Positions 4,986 to 45,969 of a stretch of 56,720 nt of DNA are shown piece by piece. Under the pieces are notes generated by a model. That model was given only the letters and a program-made list of their open reading frames with translations. It did not search any database and was not told where the DNA came from. Each line of letters starts with the position of its first letter. Position 1 is the first letter of the stretch. Location: the NCBI GenBank assembly GCA_030647325.1, contig JAUSJN010000070.1, positions 1-56,720 on the forward strand, read 5' to 3'. The position numbers were made by a program, and so were the translations under genes. The DNA is from Nanobdellota archaeon. GTDB lineage: Archaea; Nanobdellota; Nanobdellia; Woesearchaeales; GW2011-AR9.

Positions 4986-5792
4986 ATGGTCAAGCTTATT
5001 AGCTACAATATTGAATATTGTGAGGGGATGGAAGGGATATGGTACCAGTATCTGCAGTTCTGGAAAATATTTTTCCCGCCCAGAGATCTTGAGAGAAGGA
5101 TGGTTGCTGCCCTTCATAAATTAAAACCGGATATACTAGCTCTTATAGAAGTAGATATCGGTTCTCTGCGTAGTAGAGGAGAGGATGAAGTCCGTTTTTT
5201 AGAAGAGAAGCTCGGTTTTACTAATTTTGTCGAGAAGGTAAAGTATCCTGTAAAAGGATGGTTAAAATTATTCCATCATATTCCGATCCTTAACAAGCAG
5301 GCTAACGCGTTAGTCTCACGATTTCCGTTCACCAAGGTCCGCTATCACGTCTTTCACGAAGGGACTAAAAGGATGATCATCGAGGCTACGGTAAAATGCC
5401 CTAATCCGGTAACACTGTTAGCCGCTCATCTCGCCTTAGGAAAAAAAACGAGGGCGAAACAGATCAAAGAATTGATTCGGATCGTCAATAACATAAAAAA
5501 TCCAGTCATTTTAATGGGCGACTTTAATACTTTTAATGGGGAACAAGAGATCAAGGACTTGTTGCAGAAAACTCATCTGAAAGATTTGATCAGCTTGGAT
5601 AAAAAATCAGTTCCGCTGACCGAACCGGCTTGGCATCCTACCCGTAGATTAGATTATATCCTTACTTCACCTCAGGTAAAAGTGAAGAAGTATTCGGTCT
5701 TAAAGTTTCATTTTTCAGATCATCTGCCCTTGATGATTGATTTTGACTTTAAGAAAGCAGGAAAAAAATCAGTAAAGAAACCAAACAACTAG
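4986..5792 (+). CDS. endonuclease/exonuclease/phosphatase (EEP) family protein
   Basis: N-terminal SYNIE and C-terminal DYIL...SDHLPL motifs typical of the EEP fold. Paralog at 49413-50219. Confidence 0.8.
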   Translation: MVKLISYNIEYCEGMEGIWYQYLQFWKIFFPPRDLERRMVAALHKLKPDILALIEVDIGSLRSRGEDEVRFLEEKLGFTNFVEKVKYPVKGWLKLFHHIPILNKQANALVSRFPFTKVRYHVFHEGTKRMIIEATVKCPNPVTLLAAHLALGKKTRAKQIKELIRIVNNIKNPVILMGDFNTFNGEQEIKDLLQKTHLKDLISLDKKSVPLTEPAWHPTRRLDYILTSPQVKVKKYSVLKFHFSDHLPLMIDFDFKKAGKKSVKKPNN

Positions 5793-5828
5793 AGTAACGT
5801 ATATAAATCCCAGGATATTACTTCTATT

Positions 5829-6239
5829 ATGAATAAAATTGCCCTGGCGGTGCTGCTTGGAGGTTTTGGGACGCAATTATTGAAGCTCTTGATCATTTTT
5901 TTCCGGCATAAATCCTTGTCATGGCATGATTTAGTCGTAACAGGGGGCATGCCTTCATCTCACTCCGCGTTTGTCGTTTCCTTAGCCAGTATAATCTACC
6001 TTGAAGAAGGGTTGTCTACGGCGTTTGTTATCAGCTTGGTTTTGGCAATGATTGTGCTTCGGGACGCTTTTGGAGTGCGCAGAACCGTAGGAATGGAAGG
6101 AAAACAGATCGAGAAGTTACTGAAGCTGCACAAATTAAAGTCAAAATTCCATTATTCTATGGGCCATACACCTTTACAAGTAGTGGTTGGAGCAGCTCTA
6201 GGGTTGGCATCGTCACTGGCAGTCTTCTTCCTGCTCTGA
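5829..6239 (+). CDS. divergent PAP2 / DUF212 (YuiD-like) membrane protein
   Basis: GGMPSSHSAFVVSLA, RDAFGVRR and GHTPLQVVVGA motifs. Several TM helices. Confidence 0.8.
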   Translation: MNKIALAVLLGGFGTQLLKLLIIFFRHKSLSWHDLVVTGGMPSSHSAFVVSLASIIYLEEGLSTAFVISLVLAMIVLRDAFGVRRTVGMEGKQIEKLLKLHKLKSKFHYSMGHTPLQVVVGAALGLASSLAVFFLL

Positions 6240-6278
6240 GGCGATTTCTGGCTTCTCTCTAATAAATTTAACGAAAGG

Positions 6279-6288
6279 TTTATAAATT
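6279..6288 (+). promoter_or_regulatory. TATA box of tfb
   Basis: TTTATAAATT, 40-50 nt upstream of the candidate starts. Confidence 0.45.
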
Positions 6289-6325
6289 AAAGATACGGGG
6301 TTATTGTATTAATAGCCATCAAGGC

Positions 6326-7261
6326 GTGATACTTATGATACGAAAAGCCCTTAAAGAATGTCCTGAATGTGCAAGCCGTAATATATTCAGGAACGTCGAA
6401 AAAGGCGAAACTATCTGCCGGGATTGCGGTCTGGTCATTGAAGATCGCATGGTAGATTTCTCTCAGGAATGGCGTAGTTTTGAAGATGATGGTGGCCAGG
6501 ACAGCAAACGAAGAACTGGAGCTCCTTCCAGCGCTACCCAATTCGATCAAGGATTAGGGACCGAAGTCGGTACTACCGCAGATTTCTATAAATTAGGATC
6601 GGATAGAGAAAGAGATAGATTCTTCAGACTGCGAAAATGGAATATCCGTATCAGCACTGCTATTGAACGGAACTTAAAAGTTGCCCTGGCAGAATTAAAG
6701 AGAGTAAGTTCATATTTACGATTGCCTAAATCTGTGGAAGAGGAAGCTGCCCGCATCTATAGATCAGCGGTGCAGAAGGGATTAGTACGAGGAAGATCCA
6801 TGGAATCAGTCGTAGCTGGCGCATTGTACGCAGCCTGCCGAAGACATGAGATTCCACGTACACTCGATGAGATGGGCGAAGCTTCCGGCATTGAGAAGAA
6901 AGAGATTGGAAGAACCTATCGTTTTGTTACCCGCGAACTGGAAATCAGCATCCGGCCCAGTAATCCAGCTGATTACATCCCTCGTTTTGCCTCTGCTTTG
7001 AAATTAAGCCCGGAAACACAGTCAAAAGCAGTTGAGATCCTTGAACAAGCAAGAGATATCGAATTGACTTCCGGACGAGGACCAACTGGAATTGCTGCTG
7101 CTGCATTGTATGTCGCTTCTTTGATCCACGGCGAAAAGAGAACGCAGCGAGAAGTTGCTGACGTCGCTGGAGTTACGGAAGTTACTATCAGGAATAGATA
7201 CAAAGAATTGATCAAGAAGCTGAAGTTAAGCAAAGACGTCGAGAAGACCAAGAAGAAGTAA
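6326..7261 (+). CDS. tfb: transcription initiation factor IIB (TFB)
   Basis: N-terminal Zn ribbon CPECAS...CRDCG and two cyclin-like repeats. The track start is GTG 6326; ATG at 6335 is an equally plausible start. TATA box at 6279-6288. Confidence 0.95.
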   Translation: MILMIRKALKECPECASRNIFRNVEKGETICRDCGLVIEDRMVDFSQEWRSFEDDGGQDSKRRTGAPSSATQFDQGLGTEVGTTADFYKLGSDRERDRFFRLRKWNIRISTAIERNLKVALAELKRVSSYLRLPKSVEEEAARIYRSAVQKGLVRGRSMESVVAGALYAACRRHEIPRTLDEMGEASGIEKKEIGRTYRFVTRELEISIRPSNPADYIPRFASALKLSPETQSKAVEILEQARDIELTSGRGPTGIAAAALYVASLIHGEKRTQREVADVAGVTEVTIRNRYKELIKKLKLSKDVEKTKKK

Positions 7262-7302: not shown

Positions 7303-8253
7303 ATGGAAAAATACGACCCAGAATTTGCACGAAAAATAGTGGAGCATTATCCTGCTGGTACTCAAGTAGAGAAAGCTCTTTATCTTGCTCAAATGTTTGG
7401 AAAGAGGACAGAGTTTGAAGCTGCTTTAAAGGATCATGGTAGAGGTGTAGGTTTTCGTCGCAATGGGAAAAGTTTGATTGATCTTCTTAATGATGTTTGT
7501 GTACAGAAAGCTGAGTTAGTAAAGCATGACAGAACTCCTCGCGTTTATTCTGTTAATAATAATTTTCTTGCTGTTGAGAATATTCAATGCGTTGATGATG
7601 ATGGGAAGGTATTTGAACAATATAACCATCTGGCTTTTAGTAAAGATATTTTTCGGAAGGGAGGAAAAATAATTAATTTTACTCCTTATAATGCGGCAGT
7701 TCATTGCGAGAAAAATGAATTATTTTTACCGAGTTTTGCCTTGACTTGTAATATTGTTGTTGCTTTGTCTCAAAATAGGGATAATGCTGATGCAAATGCA
7801 CTCTTACAACAATATAAAAACCAAGGCGGCGGTCACGGTTATCATGCACAAAATACAATTATCAATTATGCTATGGAAGAAATAATTCATTATCCTACTG
7901 CGGCAGATTTCAACCAAACGGTAGTAGTTAATGCCGGTCTAAGAAAAATGGGAAAATGTACCAAAGCATCCCTGCAGGATGATCTTTTGGAAAGAGCACT
8001 TAAAGATACTGCTCACACTCTTTATGTAAAACAATTGACCGGTCTTGCTAATCCGTTTGATCTTGTTGAAGTAGGAAAATACCTCGATAAGCCAGTAAGA
8101 TTATGGTTCCCTTGGGGCGGTCAAGGCGGCACTGCTTTTAATGAGAAATGGGCGGCGTGGCTTGGTTGTGTTGGTGATTACTTTTACCTTAGTGGTGATG
8201 GCATTCTTAGTAACTATGGCGCCGCTCGTGGGGTAAAATTAGTCGCACCGTAG
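7303..8253 (+). CDS. hypothetical protein (316 aa)
   Basis: Long ORF with no competing frame. No motif recognised. Confidence 0.6.
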   Translation: MEKYDPEFARKIVEHYPAGTQVEKALYLAQMFGKRTEFEAALKDHGRGVGFRRNGKSLIDLLNDVCVQKAELVKHDRTPRVYSVNNNFLAVENIQCVDDDGKVFEQYNHLAFSKDIFRKGGKIINFTPYNAAVHCEKNELFLPSFALTCNIVVALSQNRDNADANALLQQYKNQGGGHGYHAQNTIINYAMEEIIHYPTAADFNQTVVVNAGLRKMGKCTKASLQDDLLERALKDTAHTLYVKQLTGLANPFDLVEVGKYLDKPVRLWFPWGGQGGTAFNEKWAAWLGCVGDYFYLSGDGILSNYGAARGVKLVAP

Positions 8254-16523: not shown

Positions 16524-17180
16524 TCAATTAATACGATAAAAACCGATCTTTCTCCTTTTCTCTAATATCTCTTCGCCTTTATTTATTCTGTCTAATTTTC
16601 TGTTAAGGGCTTCTAATGTTTCTTTTAATGATTCTGCTGCCTTTTCTAACCTTTTAGATGCTGTTTCTAATTCTTTAAGTCCAGCTTCTAATTTGTGAAC
16701 ATTTTCTTTATAATCTCTTTGAAAATTGCCTTCCTTTCTGGTTGAAAACAGACCATCCCATAAACACAAGCTTCCTAAAGCGTAAACGGCCTCTGGATCT
16801 ATGGCTGGATCTTTATGGGCTGTCGGAGAATAGATCCTTACTCCGGTATTTTCTTTGATGATATAATCTTTGGAAAGATCAGATCTTTTTTCATCAAAGA
16901 GACGGGAAGGCACGATGACTGTATCTTCTGCCAAGCCTCCCTTATCCAGCAATTGATAGACTTTGTCCGCAAGATCGTCACAAGGCACCTCGGAGTAGAA
17001 ATCTCCCCAGTTCTGATGAGGGAAGCTGGGCGCTTGCTCTTGCATCAGAGTATAACTGTCAGCAGTGAGGATATGCAGTCCTGGAAATTCTTTTCCGATA
17101 AATAGTGTGTTATATCGATACAATTCTGGGATATGCTCTTGCGTCATTTTTATGCTCTCTGATCTTGGATTTTTTCTCAA
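16524..17180 (-). CDS. hypothetical protein (218 aa) with C-terminal coiled coil, co-transcribed with orc1/cdc6
   Basis: Start overlaps the cdc6 stop by 4 nt. C-terminal heptad-like KLEAGLKELETASKRLEKAAESLKETLEAL. Confidence 0.6.
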   Translation of the reverse strand: MRKNPRSESIKMTQEHIPELYRYNTLFIGKEFPGLHILTADSYTLMQEQAPSFPHQNWGDFYSEVPCDDLADKVYQLLDKGGLAEDTVIVPSRLFDEKRSDLSKDYIIKENTGVRIYSPTAHKDPAIDPEAVYALGSLCLWDGLFSTRKEGNFQRDYKENVHKLEAGLKELETASKRLEKAAESLKETLEALNRKLDRINKGEEILEKRRKIGFYRIN

Positions 17181-18259
17181 TACTCGGTCAGCTTCTTATC
17201 CGCATCATAATGGACGATGGTAGAATTCCCCTCGCCGGAAACGCTTCTTTCGGTATTGACAAATTTCCCTTCTTTTAATTTGATGATCCTGCGCTGGAAA
17301 CTCTTGTAGCTCATATCTCCGCCTCGTTCGGCATACAAGGCGAATATCTCTCCGATCTTTCTGCCGGTCTGCTCGCGTATTAAATCAAGGATATGTTTCA
17401 TCTCTTCATCCAGCCCTTCCTTGGGCTTGATATGGAAATCATCCACTTTCTTCAGCGCTTCTGCGACATGTGCAGGAGTGATTTTCCGGGAGCTTCGCTC
17501 TTCGGCGAGATTTCCTGCTTCGCGCATCAGATATAATCCCACCCTGACGTCGCTGGTCTCCGCGCATTTTTCCACTAATTCTTTGAACGCCTCTTCGTCC
17601 CAGCAGCTGTCCACAAAGGCATAATCGCGCCGCTGCTGCAAGATACCGGCGATCTCTGCTTCATTATACGGTCGGAAATAGACAAATTCCGGTCCTAGAC
17701 GACTTCTGATACGCTCATCAAGCTCGCCGTAAGTGTCGCGATAATTGGTGATGAGGAGGATGGACTTCCTGTAAATATCTTCCAAGATCGAATACAAAAA
17801 ATCCATGTCTTCTAATTTATCGATCTCATCAAAGATAAAAACCACACTGTTTTTGTTCAATTTTTGTTTTATTAATTCCAGCAGCTCACTGGTCTTTTTG
17901 TTTTGGATGAACTTATATCCTAGATCTTCACAGATTCTGGTGTAGACCTTAAATGTGGTATTCTCCTTCCAGCAATTCACATACATGGAGATCACCTCGC
18001 CGGTCTCTTCTTCCAATTCGCGCAAGACATGTTTGCAGGCGGTTGTTTTTCCGATTCCAGGAGCGCCATACACAAATAAGTTCCTTCCGTTATGCCCTTG
18101 CAGCAATGGCCGGATAGCCGTGGCAAAGCGCATCTGCTCATTTTCCCTAAACTTCAGGATCTTGGGCTGGAAATCGTAATCTAGGATGACCGTATCGCGG
18201 AACACCGTCTCCCCGCTGCGCAACATATCTTTGAATAGCGACATGATTTTAAGAATCAA
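17177..18259 (-). CDS. cdc6: Orc1/Cdc6 replication initiator
   Basis: AAA+ Walker A GAPGIGKT, Walker B VVFIFDEID, C-terminal winged-helix region. Confidence 0.95.
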   Translation of the reverse strand: MILKIMSLFKDMLRSGETVFRDTVILDYDFQPKILKFRENEQMRFATAIRPLLQGHNGRNLFVYGAPGIGKTTACKHVLRELEEETGEVISMYVNCWKENTTFKVYTRICEDLGYKFIQNKKTSELLELIKQKLNKNSVVFIFDEIDKLEDMDFLYSILEDIYRKSILLITNYRDTYGELDERIRSRLGPEFVYFRPYNEAEIAGILQQRRDYAFVDSCWDEEAFKELVEKCAETSDVRVGLYLMREAGNLAEERSSRKITPAHVAEALKKVDDFHIKPKEGLDEEMKHILDLIREQTGRKIGEIFALYAERGGDMSYKSFQRRIIKLKEGKFVNTERSVSGEGNSTIVHYDADKKLTEY

Positions 18260-18292: not shown

Positions 18293-18545
18293 GTCATAAA
18301 AGTGCGGGAAAGCGTCTCACCTCGCCTTAAAAGGCGAGGCTTGAAAAGAGACGCTTTCTAACCCCCGCACTTTGTGACACAAGAAATACAACAAAGATTG
18401 TATTTCTGTGCAGAAGGACTTTGTCCTTCTTACATAAAAGGGCTGGATACTCCGCACTGAAGTGCGGAGCAAGAAAAGAAACAACGATTTCTTTTCTGCT
18501 CAGAAATGAAGTAGTTTCTTCATTTCTTGAGCTATCCGTCCTTTT
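18293..18545 (+). repeat. hairpin-module locus B upstream of orc1/cdc6: three-tier hairpin, alpha-beta pair (18378-18433), closing stem with hairpin plus a second alpha-beta pair (18469-18531)
   Basis: Arms read directly: GTCATAAAAGTGCGGG/CCCGCACTTTGTGAC; AAAGCGTCTC/GAGACGCTTT; CCTCGCC/GGCGAGG; CAC[A]AGAAATACA/TGTATTTCTGTG; GC[A]AGAAAAGAAA/TTTCTTTTCTGC; CTCAGAAATGAAG/CTTCATTTCT[T]GAG. Confidence 0.8.
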
Positions 18546-18602
18546 AATGTATAAAGATACTACTGCACTTTCATAAAACTTAAAAGCTCTTTTCATAAAA
18601 AT

Positions 18603-20220: not shown

Positions 20221-20441
20221 AAACGCGGAGAATTCCACCACTCTATAGAGTGGTGGTTTGCAAGCAAACCACTTATCAATGTGTGGAATTCTTGCGTGCT
20301 CAAAATTAGGCTGGGCGGTGCATGAAATGAAACGACGATTTCATTTCAGCACAGAAAATTGATAGTTTTCAATTTTCTTGTGAGCGAAGCAAACATGCCA
20401 TCGGTCTATTGACCGATGGTCCGCCCAGTCCTATTTTGACA
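20221..20441 (+). repeat. hairpin-module locus C: EcoRI-site backbone (AGAATTCCAC/GTGGAATTCT junction plus TCAAAATTAGGCTGG/CCAGTCCTATTTTGA stem) with alpha-beta-gamma hairpins nested in the second stem
   Basis: Complementary arms read directly. Backbone shared with 23159-23334. Confidence 0.8.
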
Positions 20442-20526
20442 CTCTGGAAGAGACAACCCCCATCTAGTCTGCGTGATTGTTATTGCTAACAGAAGAATTA
20501 TAAATACAATAGTTATTTTCTAGTGT

Positions 20527-22715: not shown

Positions 22716-23167
22716 ACATGTTACTAAAAACTATCGCCAGAGATTTCGCTCATCAGCATAAAATTGAACTTAATACCAGAAGAAATAGCTTAATTGGCAG
22801 AAAGGGAAGGTTAGTAGTAGGTTATTTGGAGAACAGTTTGAGACAAAAAGTATTTGTCAATAAATCATTTCCTCCTCTCGATGGCATTTATGAGAGCAGG
22901 ATAATTATCGATGATGATGGACAAAACCCGGTCTTGAAAATGAACATTCTGTACGGTTGTTTGGAAGATTACATCACTCAATTACACAAAGTTAAGACTG
23001 ATCTTTGCAAGGATATACATGGAATATTGATTGATTCTTATCTTGATCTAGAAAAATACCCTCAGCTTCCGGAAAATATCTTGCAAGAGCAATTGCCTAT
23101 CAGTATTCCTGACCATGTGGAGGATCTGCATGAACTACTTTGGAGTTTTTATCCTTACAAACGCTGA
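22712..23167 (+). CDS. hypothetical protein (151 aa)
   Basis: 4-nt overlap with the phosphoesterase gene. Its last codons and stop lie inside repeat element D. Confidence 0.55.
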   Translation: MNMLLKTIARDFAHQHKIELNTRRNSLIGRKGRLVVGYLENSLRQKVFVNKSFPPLDGIYESRIIIDDDGQNPVLKMNILYGCLEDYITQLHKVKTDLCKDIHGILIDSYLDLEKYPQLPENILQEQLPISIPDHVEDLHELLWSFYPYKR

Positions 23168-23334
23168 GAATTCCATCTATTGAATGGTGATTTGCTCCCA
23201 AACCGCTTATTAATTTGTGGAATTCTTGCGCATGAAAATAAACAACGATTTATTTTCAGCGCAGAAATACGATATTTTTCGTATTTCTTGCGTGCTCAAA
23301 ATTAGGCTGGACATTCGCCAGTCCTATTTTGACA
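23159..23334 (+). repeat. hairpin-module locus D: same backbone as C, with the alpha-beta pair (23228-23291) between the two backbone domains
   Basis: TGCTCAAAATTAGGCTGG and CCAGTCCTATTTTGACA are identical to locus C. The first domain is roughly 80 percent identical by eye. Confidence 0.8.
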
Positions 23335-23371
23335 TAAAAATATATTTAAACTGAAGTGCTTTAGAAGCGAT

Positions 23372-23500
23372 ATGCTCACCAACTGCCCGGAATGCCGTAA
23401 ACCATTGCACGAAGGCCAGCATCGGTATGCTGATGGATTGTTTAAGGTACAATATTGCAAGAAGTGCGGCTTTAGGAAGGAAACTCCTTTACAAGAATAA
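23372..23500 (+). CDS. 42-aa zinc-ribbon peptide (CxxC...CxxC), tentative
   Basis: My translation: MLTNCPECRKPLHEGQHRYADGLFKVQYCKKCGFRKETPLQE. Below the ORF-track cutoff. Confidence 0.35.
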   Translation: MLTNCPECRKPLHEGQHRYADGLFKVQYCKKCGFRKETPLQE

Positions 23501-23501
23501 A

Positions 23502-23912
23502 TTAATCAAGTTTCCGCAGAACTTTTTCTTTGAATAATATTTGCGTACGCTTTTCTATATCATCGCTTCCTTCCAAAGGCATTGAGTCTGATAAGTAAAT
23601 ACTAGATTGGGACCATTCATCTATCATCTGGCTGATAAATCCGTGATATTCCTTTGCCCTGTCTTTATATAAATCATGGCTTGGGTTTTTACAGTATTTT
23701 TCAAATCTTTGTTCAAGAATTTCGGGAATACTCTGCCAGATCGCCATGGTTATATCATCCTCGCAGAAGATATGGGAGAAATGTTCTAAATTTTTAAAGG
23801 CATATCTTTGAGCTTTTTCGTCAACTACCAGCACTCCGACAGGAATAAGATCTTTACGTGAATCGGTTAAGTCCGAACAGTATAAAGCAAGAGCGTAGCG
23901 CATTTCCATCAA
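23502..23912 (-). CDS. DUF3037-like protein (136 aa)
   Basis: N-terminal RYALALYCSDLTDSRKDLIPVGVLVV resembles the DUF3037 signature (Y..LRY.PD..RGE..NVGVV). Confidence 0.45.
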   Translation of the reverse strand: MMEMRYALALYCSDLTDSRKDLIPVGVLVVDEKAQRYAFKNLEHFSHIFCEDDITMAIWQSIPEILEQRFEKYCKNPSHDLYKDRAKEYHGFISQMIDEWSQSSIYLSDSMPLEGSDDIEKRTQILFKEKVLRKLD

Positions 23913-24283: not shown

Positions 24284-24400
24284 TTTTGATAAAACACAAA
24301 AAGTGAAGAATATCACTTTTGTGCACCAACAAAGTAGTTTCTTTGTTGCGTGGGTTTATCAAAACCATTCAAGTGGAACATTCGCTTTGCTCAGTTCCAC
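24284..24400 (+). repeat. hairpin-module locus G: stem TTTTGATAAA/TTTATCAAAA enclosing an alpha-beta pair (24295-24352), followed by hairpin GTGGAAC/GTTCCAC
   Basis: CAC[A]AAAAGTGA-agaata-TCACTTTTGTG and CAC-CAACAAAG-tagttt-CTTTGTTG[C]GTG read directly. Confidence 0.7.
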
Positions 24401-24410
24401 GACATTGATT

Positions 24411-26442: not shown

Positions 26443-26546
26443 TGAGCCTGCAGGGATTCGAACCCCGATATCGATTTTGGACACCTTTATGTTGCCCAAA
26501 TTAACCGGTCCGAAGCCGATTGTGCTATCCGTTACACCACAGGCCC
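26443..26546 (-). tRNA. tRNA-Arg(UCG) with an insertion of about 31 nt after the anticodon arm (variable-loop region)
   Basis: Minus-strand read: GGGCCTG TG GTGT-AACGGATA-GCAC A ATCGG-CTTCGGA-CCGGT, then 36 nt (a normal variable loop is 5 nt), then CGGGG-TTCGAAT-CCCTG CAGGCTC A. Confidence 0.75.
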
Positions 26547-30225: not shown

Positions 30226-30426
30226 CTGACCTCTTTCTGAGAACTAATGTTTTTGGATATTTATAGCTTGTGGTTGAGATTAACCATAAATAATGGAAGA
30301 CATATAAATATTGCATAATCTCTGTCTTCCAAACTTTAGTTGAGGAGAAGTACATCCAAAACGATTGTCCTCAACTAAAAAGTCAAAAATTTTATAAAGA
30401 GACTAGGGGCTTTAAGCATAACTTAT

Positions 30427-30529
30427 AGCCCCGTCGTCTAGCGGACTAGGATAGAGCCTGAGTTGTTAAGTTACACTCAGCTAGAACCCTTTGGAGGCTT
30501 TGACAGCGGTTCGAATCCGCTCGGGGCTA
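30427..30529 (+). tRNA. tRNA-Gln(UUG) with a 30-nt intron at a non-canonical position (31/32 or 32/33)
   Basis: A1-U72 acceptor AGCCCCG/CGGGGCT (typical of archaeal tRNA-Gln). D arm GTCT-AGCGGACTA-GGAT. Anticodon stem GAGCC/GGCTT separated by 37 nt, of which only the 3' part gives a legal loop, C/T-T-TTG-G-A. T arm AGCGG-TTCGAAT-CCGCT. Confidence 0.75.
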
Positions 30530-30546
30530 ATTTTTTCATCTAAACC

Positions 30547-43928: not shown

Positions 43929-44169
43929 ATGCAAAAAAATAGCCAGAAAACTATTGACTAAAGTCAATGTCCACAGAAAAACAACGATTTTTCTGGGACG
44001 CCGAAAAAGTCGTTGCTTTTTCGTGCGGATGAATGATGCTATGGCTATTTTTGCATCCTAAAAATGTGTGGTTTAGAAACCGTCTCTTTTTCAAACCTTG
44101 CACTTTAGTGTGTGCTGTAAGCACGACCAAAAAGGTACTAACTTTTTGTGGACATGGTGAGACGGTTTC
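43929..44169 (+). repeat. hairpin-module locus E: stem ATGCAAAAAAATAGCCA/TGGCTATTTTTGCAT enclosing an alpha-beta pair (43971-44027), then a GAAACCGTCTC/GAGACGGTTTC-closed domain
   Basis: CC[A]CAGAAAAA-caacga-TTTTTCTGGG and CGC-CGAAAAAG-tcgttg-CTTTTTCG[T]GCG read directly. Confidence 0.75.
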
Positions 44170-45754: not shown

Positions 45755-45819
45755 TGCGCCGATGCAAGAAAACTATAAGTTTTCTGCACAGAAATATGAT
45801 ATTCTTCATATTTCTTGTG
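45755..45819 (+). repeat. hairpin-module locus F: alpha-beta pair
   Basis: GC[A]AGAAAAC-tataa-GTTTTCTGC and CAC-AGAAATATGA-tattct-TCATATTTCT[T]GTG. Confidence 0.75.
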
Positions 45820-45969
45820 GCGGTGCGACGGTTGCTACGCAACCTACACGACAGCCCGTAGGGCGCATCCCCAGTCGTGCCGCACGCCATGGCGCAAGAC
45901 AAACCGGGGGACGTCCCTTACGGGGTGGTTTGTAGGACGAAGTCCGTCTTGCCGCCATGATGGCGTGCA
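45820..45969 (+). other. 150-nt strongly GC-rich, helix-dense non-coding segment (candidate structured RNA; strand unknown)
   Basis: Hairpins GGTTGC-tac-GCAACC, CACGAC...GTCGTG around GCCC-gta-GGGC, and GGAC-gaa-GTCC. Long-range helix GCACGCCAT-GGCG-CAAGAC (45882-45900) with GTCTTG-CCGCC-atg-ATGGCGTGC (45946-45968). Confidence 0.5.

Follow-up and report, generated by a model that had tools for sequence, protein, structure and literature searches.

Within a 56,720-nt stretch of the genome of a Nanobdellota archaeon (contig JAUSJN010000070.1; hereafter, the window), the intergenic locus C (20221-20441) contains two adjacent hairpins, alpha and beta, each with a single unpaired base, and this alpha-beta pair recurs six more times in the window. 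Is the pair a structured RNA present in many copies, or a repeat element recognised as DNA? A preliminary description had offered both readings, and had noted the likeness of the second to repetitive extragenic palindromic (REP) sequences, to bacterial interspersed mosaic elements (BIMEs) and to the ends of IS200/IS605 insertion sequences. We favor, with a probability of about 0.6, the conclusion that the pair is a 62-nt, non-autonomous, miniature mobile DNA element, representing a double-hairpin family in DPANN Woesearchaeota that resembles BIMEs and the REP doublets forming hairpins (REPINs). A repeat element acting at the DNA level fits what is described below: insertions that are exact and polymorphic, copies nested in one another, composites of mosaic make-up, and symmetry of the two strands. 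A structured RNA is unlikely, and membership of REP/BIME or IS200/IS605 was not borne out.

Architecture and covariation of the hairpin pair

In locus C, the alpha unit (20320-20350, + strand) consists of GC, an unpaired A, a 10-bp stem TGAAATGAAA/TTTCATTTCA with the loop CGACGA, and GC, and the beta unit (20351-20382, + strand) of AC, a 10-bp stem AGAAAATTGA/TCAATTTTCT with the loop TAGTTT, an unpaired T, and GT; this beta is an alpha-type unit in inverted orientation. Reverse-complemented, beta can be aligned to alpha gaplessly over one 31-nt unit, so that the pair contains a single motif twice, in inverted orientation; its full length is 62 nt, and it looks alike from both strands. Between the two halves of a clamp of 2-3 bp, the unit has an unpaired A and a stem of 8-10 bp with a 6-nt loop (CAACGA, AAACTA or AGAATA). 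The stem is conserved in its outer half, [A/T]GAAA, and free yet always complementary in its inner half. All six further pairs listed in the preliminary description were recovered where it had placed them. Its rules of construction needed amendment: the clamp is present, but measures 2-3 bp and is often AC/GT or CAC/GTG, not solely G/C; the beta unit of the 18378 copy lacks a proper clamp; and the alpha stem at 45764 departs from the pattern, with 8 bp and a 3-nt loop. In the window, perfect hairpins with stems of 7 bp or more stand next to each other as a pair in 10 places, compared to a mean of 0.15 in 40 dinucleotide-preserving shuffles, and the full clamp-plus-bulge architecture was found in 6 of these 10 pairs and in none of the 40 shuffles.

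An exact-pattern scan of public metagenomes, in which the inner 5 positions per arm were left free and only the outer stem, the loop of alpha and its junction with beta were fixed, yielded 74 metagenome loci, mostly from groundwater (Hainich, Rifle-type samples), and 0 viral contigs; no similarity to phage or plasmid records was found. Covariance models were made of the unit (R1) and of the pair (R2). The pair model, a check proposed in the preliminary description, produced further copies, matching approximately 120 positions across the 74 loci and 2-3 positions in 367 kb around the Orc1 genes of related species. Single units were not detected by either model in the window, and elsewhere practically only adjacent (+)(-) doublets were found.

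The free inner stem positions are Watson-Crick paired in 98.8% of cases (52 distinct copies with 22 different inner 5-mers), compared to 47% when the arms are swapped between copies. Among 37 aligned pairs, 98.5% of the cells are paired (41-51% in slid controls), a percentage that is partly built in because this set was pre-filtered for at least 9/10 pairs, and double-sided changes outnumber one-sided changes 175 to 1. A relaxed scan that was blind to sequence and allowed up to 2 mismatches per stem showed 57 of 67 unique pairs to be free of mismatch, with G:T or A:C in 5 of 1285 stem cells; the unpaired base was A on the 5' arm in 53 of 57 pairs and T on the 3' arm in 52 of 57. The compensatory variation from which the preliminary description had argued is thus strongly borne out by all three comparisons, and selection on the fold is beyond doubt. 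Locus C, computed as single-stranded DNA, folds with -62.7 kcal/mol (z = -11.4) on the + strand and is as stable on the - strand (-64.2 kcal/mol, z = -11.6). The scarcity of wobble pairs, taken with a fold that is as stable on one strand as on the other, suggests that the selected molecule is DNA (or both strands) rather than one RNA.

The four-part make-up that had been claimed for locus C was reproduced by the predicted fold, and all parts were found. The 221-nt composite is a J module followed by an S module that encloses alpha, beta and a hairpin, gamma (no strand is assigned to the composite or to J, S and gamma). The J module (20223-20297) is a stem CGC..GAGAATTCCAC / GTGGAATTCT-T-GCG around two small hairpins, the junction being closed by AGAATTCCAC/GTGGAATTCT in both sequence and predicted fold; it is built as a beta unit with a filled loop, and has a second copy at 23167-23230 (repeat family D5). 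The backbone stem of the S module (20300-20439, TCAAAATTAGGCTGG...CCAGTCCTATTTTGA) has the arms TCAAAATTAGGCTGGGCGG/CCGCCCAGTCCTATTTTGA, interrupted by two single-base bulges, and its loop holds a nested insert of a GCGG-stem, alpha, beta and gamma (20398-20419, CCATCGGTC TATT GACCGATGG); elsewhere, at 23293-23335 (repeat family D18), the S stem closes a plain 7-nt loop.

Exact insertion, nesting and polymorphism

The pairs have discrete boundaries, are inserted exactly and without duplication, are polymorphic among relatives, turn up in unrelated contexts as identical copies and as a shared deletion derivative, nest in one another, and keep strict Watson-Crick complementarity on both strands. 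Locus C itself recurs with precisely the boundaries given in the preliminary description, at 90-96% identity and with unrelated flanks, in three metagenome loci (L053, L095 and L097), which together with the window makes four contexts. Stems vary less than loops and linkers among these four copies, and compensatory changes occur in the J module of L097 (GAATTC to GTATTC/GAATAC) and in the beta unit of L095 (TTGA/TCAA in locus C to TAGA/TCTA), although J, S and gamma show several one-sided mismatches all the same. The composite is missing from the orthologous Lsm-translin spacer of L002, where 63 bp are present instead.

The pair in locus L037 sits inside a Bro-N/DinD gene, and when exactly nt 619-680 (62 nt, GCAAG...CTTGC) are removed, the reading frame continues across GYSD|EWIEKRVRG. 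The protein repaired in this way gives a gapless alignment with protein P0122 (79% identity) and is covered over 95-98% of its length by thousands of homologues. This exact repair places the ends of the element at the ends of the clamps and leaves no target-site duplication. An archaeal bulge-helix-bulge intron in the L037 gene was considered and rejected, the exon flanks being unable to pair by visual inspection. A second empty site is the left end of an IS200-like element, which is uninterrupted in L105 (TTCTTCAC|ACCTAAAAA), whereas in L046 and L078 a pair occupies this point; L078 has a second pair at another point. Likewise, L004 and L006 share a structured element, into which a 58-nt pair is precisely inserted in L004, and pairs lie without duplication within the loops or stems of other pairs, for example in L048, L049 (CTTC|ATTTCT), L092 and L093. 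No target-site duplication was found at any of the resolved junctions (L037, L105 compared to L046 and L078, L049, and L092), and the flanks of the pairs are unrelated to one another apart from a weak preference for C/T at position -1 and G/A at position +1.

Orthologous spacers, the comparison of which the preliminary description had recommended, also show presence/absence polymorphism among relatives. In the spacer of the Orc1 gene, compared among homologous loci from Woesearchaeota/Nanoarchaeota metagenome-assembled genomes (DPANN archaea), the two promoter cores abut in L004, L002 and L007, which lack the ~270 bp insert of the window, and L003, L005, L006 and L008 carry other, unrelated inserts at the same point. 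Conversely, L002 carries a pair at a place where the window has none. All seven pairs of the window lie outside the larger open reading frames, in divergent, tandem and convergent spacers alike, and 41 of the 51 classifiable copies of the family are intergenic, between tandem (20), divergent (13) and convergent (8) genes; this arrangement is close to random, which argues against a role as terminators.

Together, these comparisons suggest a family of lineage-specific hairpin modules (alpha-beta, J, S, U1 and gamma, of which U1 is described below) in groundwater Woesearchaeota, which insert into spacers, into the loops and stems of one another, into further mobile elements and, on occasion, into genes, and travel as tandem or nested composites.

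Agents, analogues and rival explanations

How such an element might move is suggested by which of its parts are conserved. It would be recognised as folded single-stranded or cruciform DNA through its loop, unpaired base and outer stem, because these are conserved and the inner stem merely has to pair; a trans-acting enzyme encoded elsewhere in the genome would cut at the foot of each hairpin and paste the element between a pyrimidine and G, without duplication. The inverted arrangement presents the unit in the recognised orientation once per strand, which is the geometry of REPINs and not that of IS200/IS605 ends. In bacteria, REP doublets are mobilised by the REP-associated tyrosine transposases (RAYTs) of the Y1 type, and a RAYT-like HUH/Y1 enzyme acting on single-stranded or cruciform DNA would be the leading candidate agent here. 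More speculatively, the lack of G:T intermediates suggests correction or copying from arm to arm.

We searched for Y1 genes by tblastn, using IS200/IS608 transposase sequences as queries. In agreement with the preliminary description, no HUH/Y1 gene was found in the 56.7 kb of the window, nor was a reverse transcriptase. The search for IS200/IS605 transposases that the description had proposed did recover one Y1 gene (Pfam PF01797, E = 2 × 10−32), situated in L046 at 170 bp from a pair; this gene, however, did not prove to be the partner of the pairs. It belongs to the IS200-like element mentioned above (L105 1250-2200, L046 5600-6600, L078 200-600), which is ~1 kb long, encodes a Y1 transposase of 218 aa, and has end hairpins rich in GC as well as a left-end hairpin that is long and imperfect. 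The transposase family is multi-copy (680 homologues, mostly on ~1 kb contigs), and copies of the element have decayed, with a frameshift in L046, deletion to a remnant in L078, and fragments in L056 and L078. The element has been hit at least twice by alpha-beta insertions. That the pair might be a part of the L046 element was rejected, given that the L105 element is empty, that the hairpins of the insertion sequence are GC-rich, and that 17 loci carrying this transposase family contain no pair. The other Y1 genes seen outside the window are likewise of multi-copy IS200-like elements, none of them flanked by alpha or beta units. The L046 gene shows only that Y1 transposases live in the same populations (L046, L056, the L078 remnants, and L103-L108).

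In behaviour, the closest analogues are bacterial REPINs/BIMEs and the double-hairpin or repetitive hairpin elements of mitochondria. REPINs and BIMEs share with the pairs palindromes that are short and imperfect and contain an unpaired base, replication as a doublet whose units are inverted, mosaic composites, a mostly extragenic, many-copy and lineage-specific distribution, compensatory evolution of the stems, long persistence and strand-symmetric geometry. By contrast, the present host is archaeal (DPANN), pairs are found within other pairs and within genes, the stems of the two units differ and, unlike the arms of a REPIN, the units do not base-pair together, and the inner half-stems are hypervariable yet perfectly paired. 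The REP tag GTAG/CGTC was absent from the unit alignments (A2 and A4), in which units begin with GC/AC, A and [A/T]GAAA, and a RAYT gene flanked by the repeats was not found in the 56.7 kb of the window. IS200/IS605 ends and their derivatives without genes, the palindrome-associated transposable elements, are alike in having hairpins with an unpaired base at their ends, a minimal element of two hairpins, no need for a terminal inverted repeat and no target-site duplication, and Y1 transposases are present in the same populations. However, the two hairpins of IS200/IS605 have the same orientation on one strand, are cleaved 10-19 nt away and are inserted 3' of a fixed 4-5 nt target, whereas the units here are inverted (beta being the reverse complement), with boundaries at the hairpin feet and a weak Y|G preference.

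The mitochondrial elements (double-hairpin elements of Allomyces, repetitive hairpin elements of sponges, GC clusters of yeast and palindromes of Volvox) are also 26-80 nt long with two hairpins, lie in spacers, other repeats and sometimes genes, and are polymorphic between relatives; those of Allomyces have no flanking duplication (PMC2800124). They differ in belonging to eukaryote organelle genomes, in their unrelated sequence, and in that no conserved signature of loop and unpaired base has been described for them. MITEs (miniature inverted-repeat transposable elements) and the palindromic elements of Rickettsia are similarly small, non-autonomous, structured and dense in small genomes, and the Rickettsia elements also insert in frame into genes. 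MITEs, however, are defined by terminal inverted repeats of at least 10-15 bp and a target-site duplication of 2-10 bp, and there is no duplication here. A 9-bp terminal inverted repeat of the pair, including the unpaired A and T (GCAAGAAAT/ATTTCTTGC), was considered and rejected: the 9-nt termini are complementary through the family consensus only, no better within a copy than between copies. The clamp model is supported by the covariation of column 32 with column 62. In a census of MITEs, a Woesearchaea genome had 105 MITEs per Mb, among the highest archaeal densities, and this family was not described (PMC11602168). With the defining tag, hairpin orientation, fixed target and target-site duplication all absent here, there is no support for assigning the pairs to REP/BIME, to elements derived from IS200/IS605 or to classical MITEs.

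Several observations weigh against a mobile element. Its mobility is inferred from comparisons; no cognate enzyme was found, and the sole Y1 transposase seen belongs to an insertion sequence that is a target and not a carrier; the same-orientation hairpins and 4-5 nt target of the IS200/IS605 ends do not match the inverted units and weak Y|G target; and the missing G:T intermediates go beyond ordinary mutation plus selection and may require an arm-copying or repair step. Moreover, some copies are kept in place far better than expected of selfish DNA. A 63-nt variant of the pair, with a 7-nt beta loop that restores the frame, lies in frame after RVRGV|R in an uncharacterised gene family. The members of this family lack a Pfam domain and conserve the motif RVRGVR; the pair is translated as KKTDNDQFSAQKSDNSSDFL. 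It is present in the genes at L096 1435-2373 (-), L081 2964-3926 (+), L120 1501-2604 and L121 322-1251 and in the protein P0246, and missing from P0245, P0248, P0249, P0252, P0258 and P0259; the C-terminal tails 3' of the pair differ among the homologues. The DNA of the in-frame pair is 95-98% identical in the four genes, compared to ~50% (at the protein level) for the neighbouring coding sequence, and the L121 copy has a compensatory change of the clamp from GC/GC to GT/AC.

The second case of copies that stay in place involves diversity-generating retroelements (DGRs). That of L087 (5740-11819) has a reverse transcriptase gene (5740-6825, +), a template repeat (6849-6998) in minus-strand sense and convergent with that gene, and three variable repeats (VR1 to VR3) at the 3' ends of three paralogous genes, which differ from the template at T positions alone (+ strand). 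A pair follows directly after the initiation of mutagenic homing (IMH) sequence of VR1, adjoining a native hairpin GCGCC-GTGA-GGCGC, and another lies 21 nt after the IMH of VR3. DGRs are also present in L077, L035, L040 and L010; no pair was found at VR2 of the L087 DGR or at the L010 DGR. The VR1-type pair is retained in L077 and L035, where the reverse transcriptases are 88% and 58% identical, and shows the compensatory change CTGA/TCAG to CCGA/TCGG. The position after an IMH is thus that of the pair at 2 of the 3 variable repeats of L087 and in the related L077 and L035, but not of the seven window pairs nor of most others. Conservation in place, in these genes and beside these DGRs, is compatible with a function in cis or for the host, and also with horizontal spread in recent times.

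The rival that survives best, although we consider it unlikely, is accordingly that the pairs are a cis-acting DNA structure of the host, with sites that form cruciforms or hairpins and serve recombination, replication, chromatin or as the target hairpin of DGRs, with spread being secondary. In its favor are the nucleotide conservation and compensatory change in situ in the gene family, the L087 pairs that follow the IMH of VR1 and that of VR3, the position expected of DGR target hairpins, the retention of the VR1-type pair in L077 and L035, the perfect strand symmetry, and the four locus C copies, with stems steadier than loops and linkers. However, the corresponding spacers of close relatives are free of the elements, with no harm apparent, the L037 copy disrupts a conserved gene, and copies are nested in one another and inside an insertion sequence. 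As for the DGR target hairpin, VR2 of L087 and the L010 DGR have no pair, only about two independent DGR associations were seen, and the window has no reverse transcriptase.

A tentative extension combines both mobility and function: the 62-nt double hairpin might be the complete cis-acting substrate of an undescribed transposition pathway, in which it would be processed as a cruciform or as folded single strands and one arm of each hairpin would be re-copied or repaired from the other, together with co-option by hosts, for example as a DGR target hairpin. Re-copying of the arms would explain the perfect palindromes, the hypervariable inner stems and the lack of G:T intermediates, and co-option would explain the copies long conserved in place. 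We regard this combination as doubtful.

The element as a mobile DNA is also to be compared with a multi-copy structured RNA, either a protein-binding or stabilising motif of transcripts or a small RNA gene. The very strong covariation, the conserved loops and unpaired base, and the one copy that is transcribed and translated within an open reading frame would all be expected of an RNA. Functional RNA helices normally employ G:U, whereas G:T or A:C pairs are nearly absent from the stems and changes are almost exclusively double-sided, as reported above; both strands fold equally; there is no common promoter and the flanks are unrelated; orientation relative to genes is unbiased; and several copies appear, from their sequence, to lie between the TATA boxes of divergent genes, 5' of both. 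A search with Rfam 15, which the preliminary description had suggested, gave no match to a known family: only tRNA reaches the gathering score in the window, and nothing relevant appears up to E = 5; ARAGORN reported nothing. We therefore consider an RNA improbable.

Less probable still is a retro-mobile element, copied through RNA by a reverse transcriptase such as the DGR enzyme and inserted without duplication. The lack of a target-site duplication would be consistent with this route, and the same argument has been published for the mitochondrial hairpin elements, those of Allomyces having been proposed to be copied from RNA via reverse transcriptase (PMC2800124). Reverse transcriptase genes lie no more than 500 bp from pairs in L035, L040, L077 and L087, but 3 of these 4 loci are one inherited arrangement, and enrichment next to DGR reverse transcriptases was accordingly not accepted as more than a lead. 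In addition, the boundaries are exact whatever the context of transcription, the element is strand-symmetric, the window has no reverse transcriptase, and DGR enzymes are, to our knowledge, not known to mobilise unrelated RNAs.

Finally, Orc1/Cdc6-bound repeats resembling origin recognition boxes (ORBs), or bidirectional terminators, are very remote candidates, for although a cluster of pairs lies directly upstream of the Orc1/Cdc6 gene (17177-18259) and the 3' stem arms are T-rich, the Orc1 spacer is empty (L004, L002, L007) or filled with unrelated inserts (L003, L005, L006, L008) in relatives, where retained ORB repeats flanking an unwinding element next to orc1/cdc6 would have been expected, copies are spread over 27 kb and many unrelated loci, and 13 of 41 copies lie between divergent gene starts with no excess at, or bias toward, gene 3' ends.

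Other modules of the window and significance of the family

The window carries approximately one pair per 8 kb, plus several other hairpin modules, among genes that include those for Orc1/Cdc6 (17177-18259), an Lsm protein, translin, SRP54 and a type IV secretion-type ATPase. The ~270 bp insert of the Orc1 spacer contains three hairpin units. U1 (18296-18376, no strand assigned) is a long hairpin module of three tiers, AAAGTGCGGG / AAAGCGTCTC / CCTCGCCT-TAAA-AGGCGAGG..., with related modules at 650-800 of the window and 7040-7090 of L087; an alpha-beta pair follows at 18379-18433 (+), the beta of which is short and imperfect (pair-model score 49.5 bits). U3 (18434-18552, +) has an S-like closing stem CATAAAAGGGCTGGATA / TATCCGTCCTTTTAATG that encloses a hairpin CTCCGCAC-TGAA-GTGCGGAG and the alpha-beta pair 18469-18530. 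A ~105-nt derivative of U3 with a 21-nt internal deletion and the same pair was seen in at least 5 different flanking contexts. Around the same ~105-nt element, L045 has the left flank of L098 and the right flank of L099, a pattern that could be due to recombination at the repeat or to chimeric assembly across it. Further hairpin modules at 650-800 and 44085-44120 (for example CCTCGTCT-TTTA-AGGCGAGG and CCACGCAC-TTTA-GTGCGTGG, with the closing stem GCCTATTTATG) are related to U1 and to the epsilon hairpins of 18296-18469.

A second composite (23167-23335, +) joins a J-like module, the alpha-beta pair 23230-23291 and the simple S hairpin 23293-23335. Directly 3' of it lies an unannotated open reading frame of 43 codons (23373-23504, +) with two CxxC motifs (MLTNCPECRKPL...YCKKCG), which probably encodes a zinc-ribbon protein. 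The pair at 24294-24352 has 8-bp stems, C as the unpaired base of beta, and an ambiguous orientation; just 3' of it is an inverted repeat AGTGGAAC-N14-GTTCCACG (24372-24403), the GTGGAA/TTCCAC cores of which also make up the J stem and may resemble the cores of archaeal ORBs. The stem-closed element at 43930-44056 (+; TGCAAAAAAATAGCCAG / CTATGGCTATTTTTGCA) surrounds a hairpin ATTGACT-AAA-GTCAAT and the pair 43971-44027, whose two loops (TCGTTG in beta, CAACGA in alpha) are exact reverse complements of each other; a related copy of this element is present in L044. The pair at 45764-45818 (+) is inserted at the edge of a GC-rich structured element, and the orthologue of that element in L073 is empty at this point and has a different pair 13 nt away. 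The GC-rich element itself (45820-45935, in an AT-rich spacer; L073 orthologue at ~7440-7660) has a closing helix TTGCGCCRTGGCG / CGCCACTGGCGCAA that is kept in L073, has no Rfam match, and may be an unannotated non-coding RNA.

In relatives, the Lsm-translin spacer (L004 1790-2000; L006 880-1000) contains a structured element of ~150 nt, with a closing stem GGCAAYAACA... / ...TGCGTSAKTGTTRTTGCC and a motif GACAACCCCC, of which the window retains the 3' half alone (20442-20490); a sequence similar to this motif, TTCAACCCCGCTC, lies in the right-end region of the IS200-like element. The window also has a tRNA with a long intron after the anticodon arm (26443-26546, -), detected by Rfam alone, and a second tRNA-like sequence (~30425-30530, +) with a long insert in the anticodon region, which was missed by both Rfam and ARAGORN.

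A literature search gave nothing specific on hairpin repeats of Woesearchaeota or on archaeal REP/RAYT systems, and we know of no REP/REPIN-like system described in archaea. The alpha-beta pairs are a real, well-defined new family of miniature hairpin repeats in a domain without characterised ones, and would represent, by analogy, an archaeal counterpart of the bacterial REP/REPIN elements in groundwater DPANN archaea; a link to DGR target sites is possible. The 62-nt element, defined by sequence and with exact ends, is a substrate that could be used to seek the enzyme that moves hairpin repeats, a question shared with bacterial REPINs and mitochondrial hairpin elements. DPANN archaea have tiny, streamlined genomes, with which the density of hairpin modules in the window stands in contrast. 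The elements break genes and add 21 residues to one protein, sit inside other mobile elements and beside DGR targets, and are likely to fragment metagenome assemblies of these lineages.

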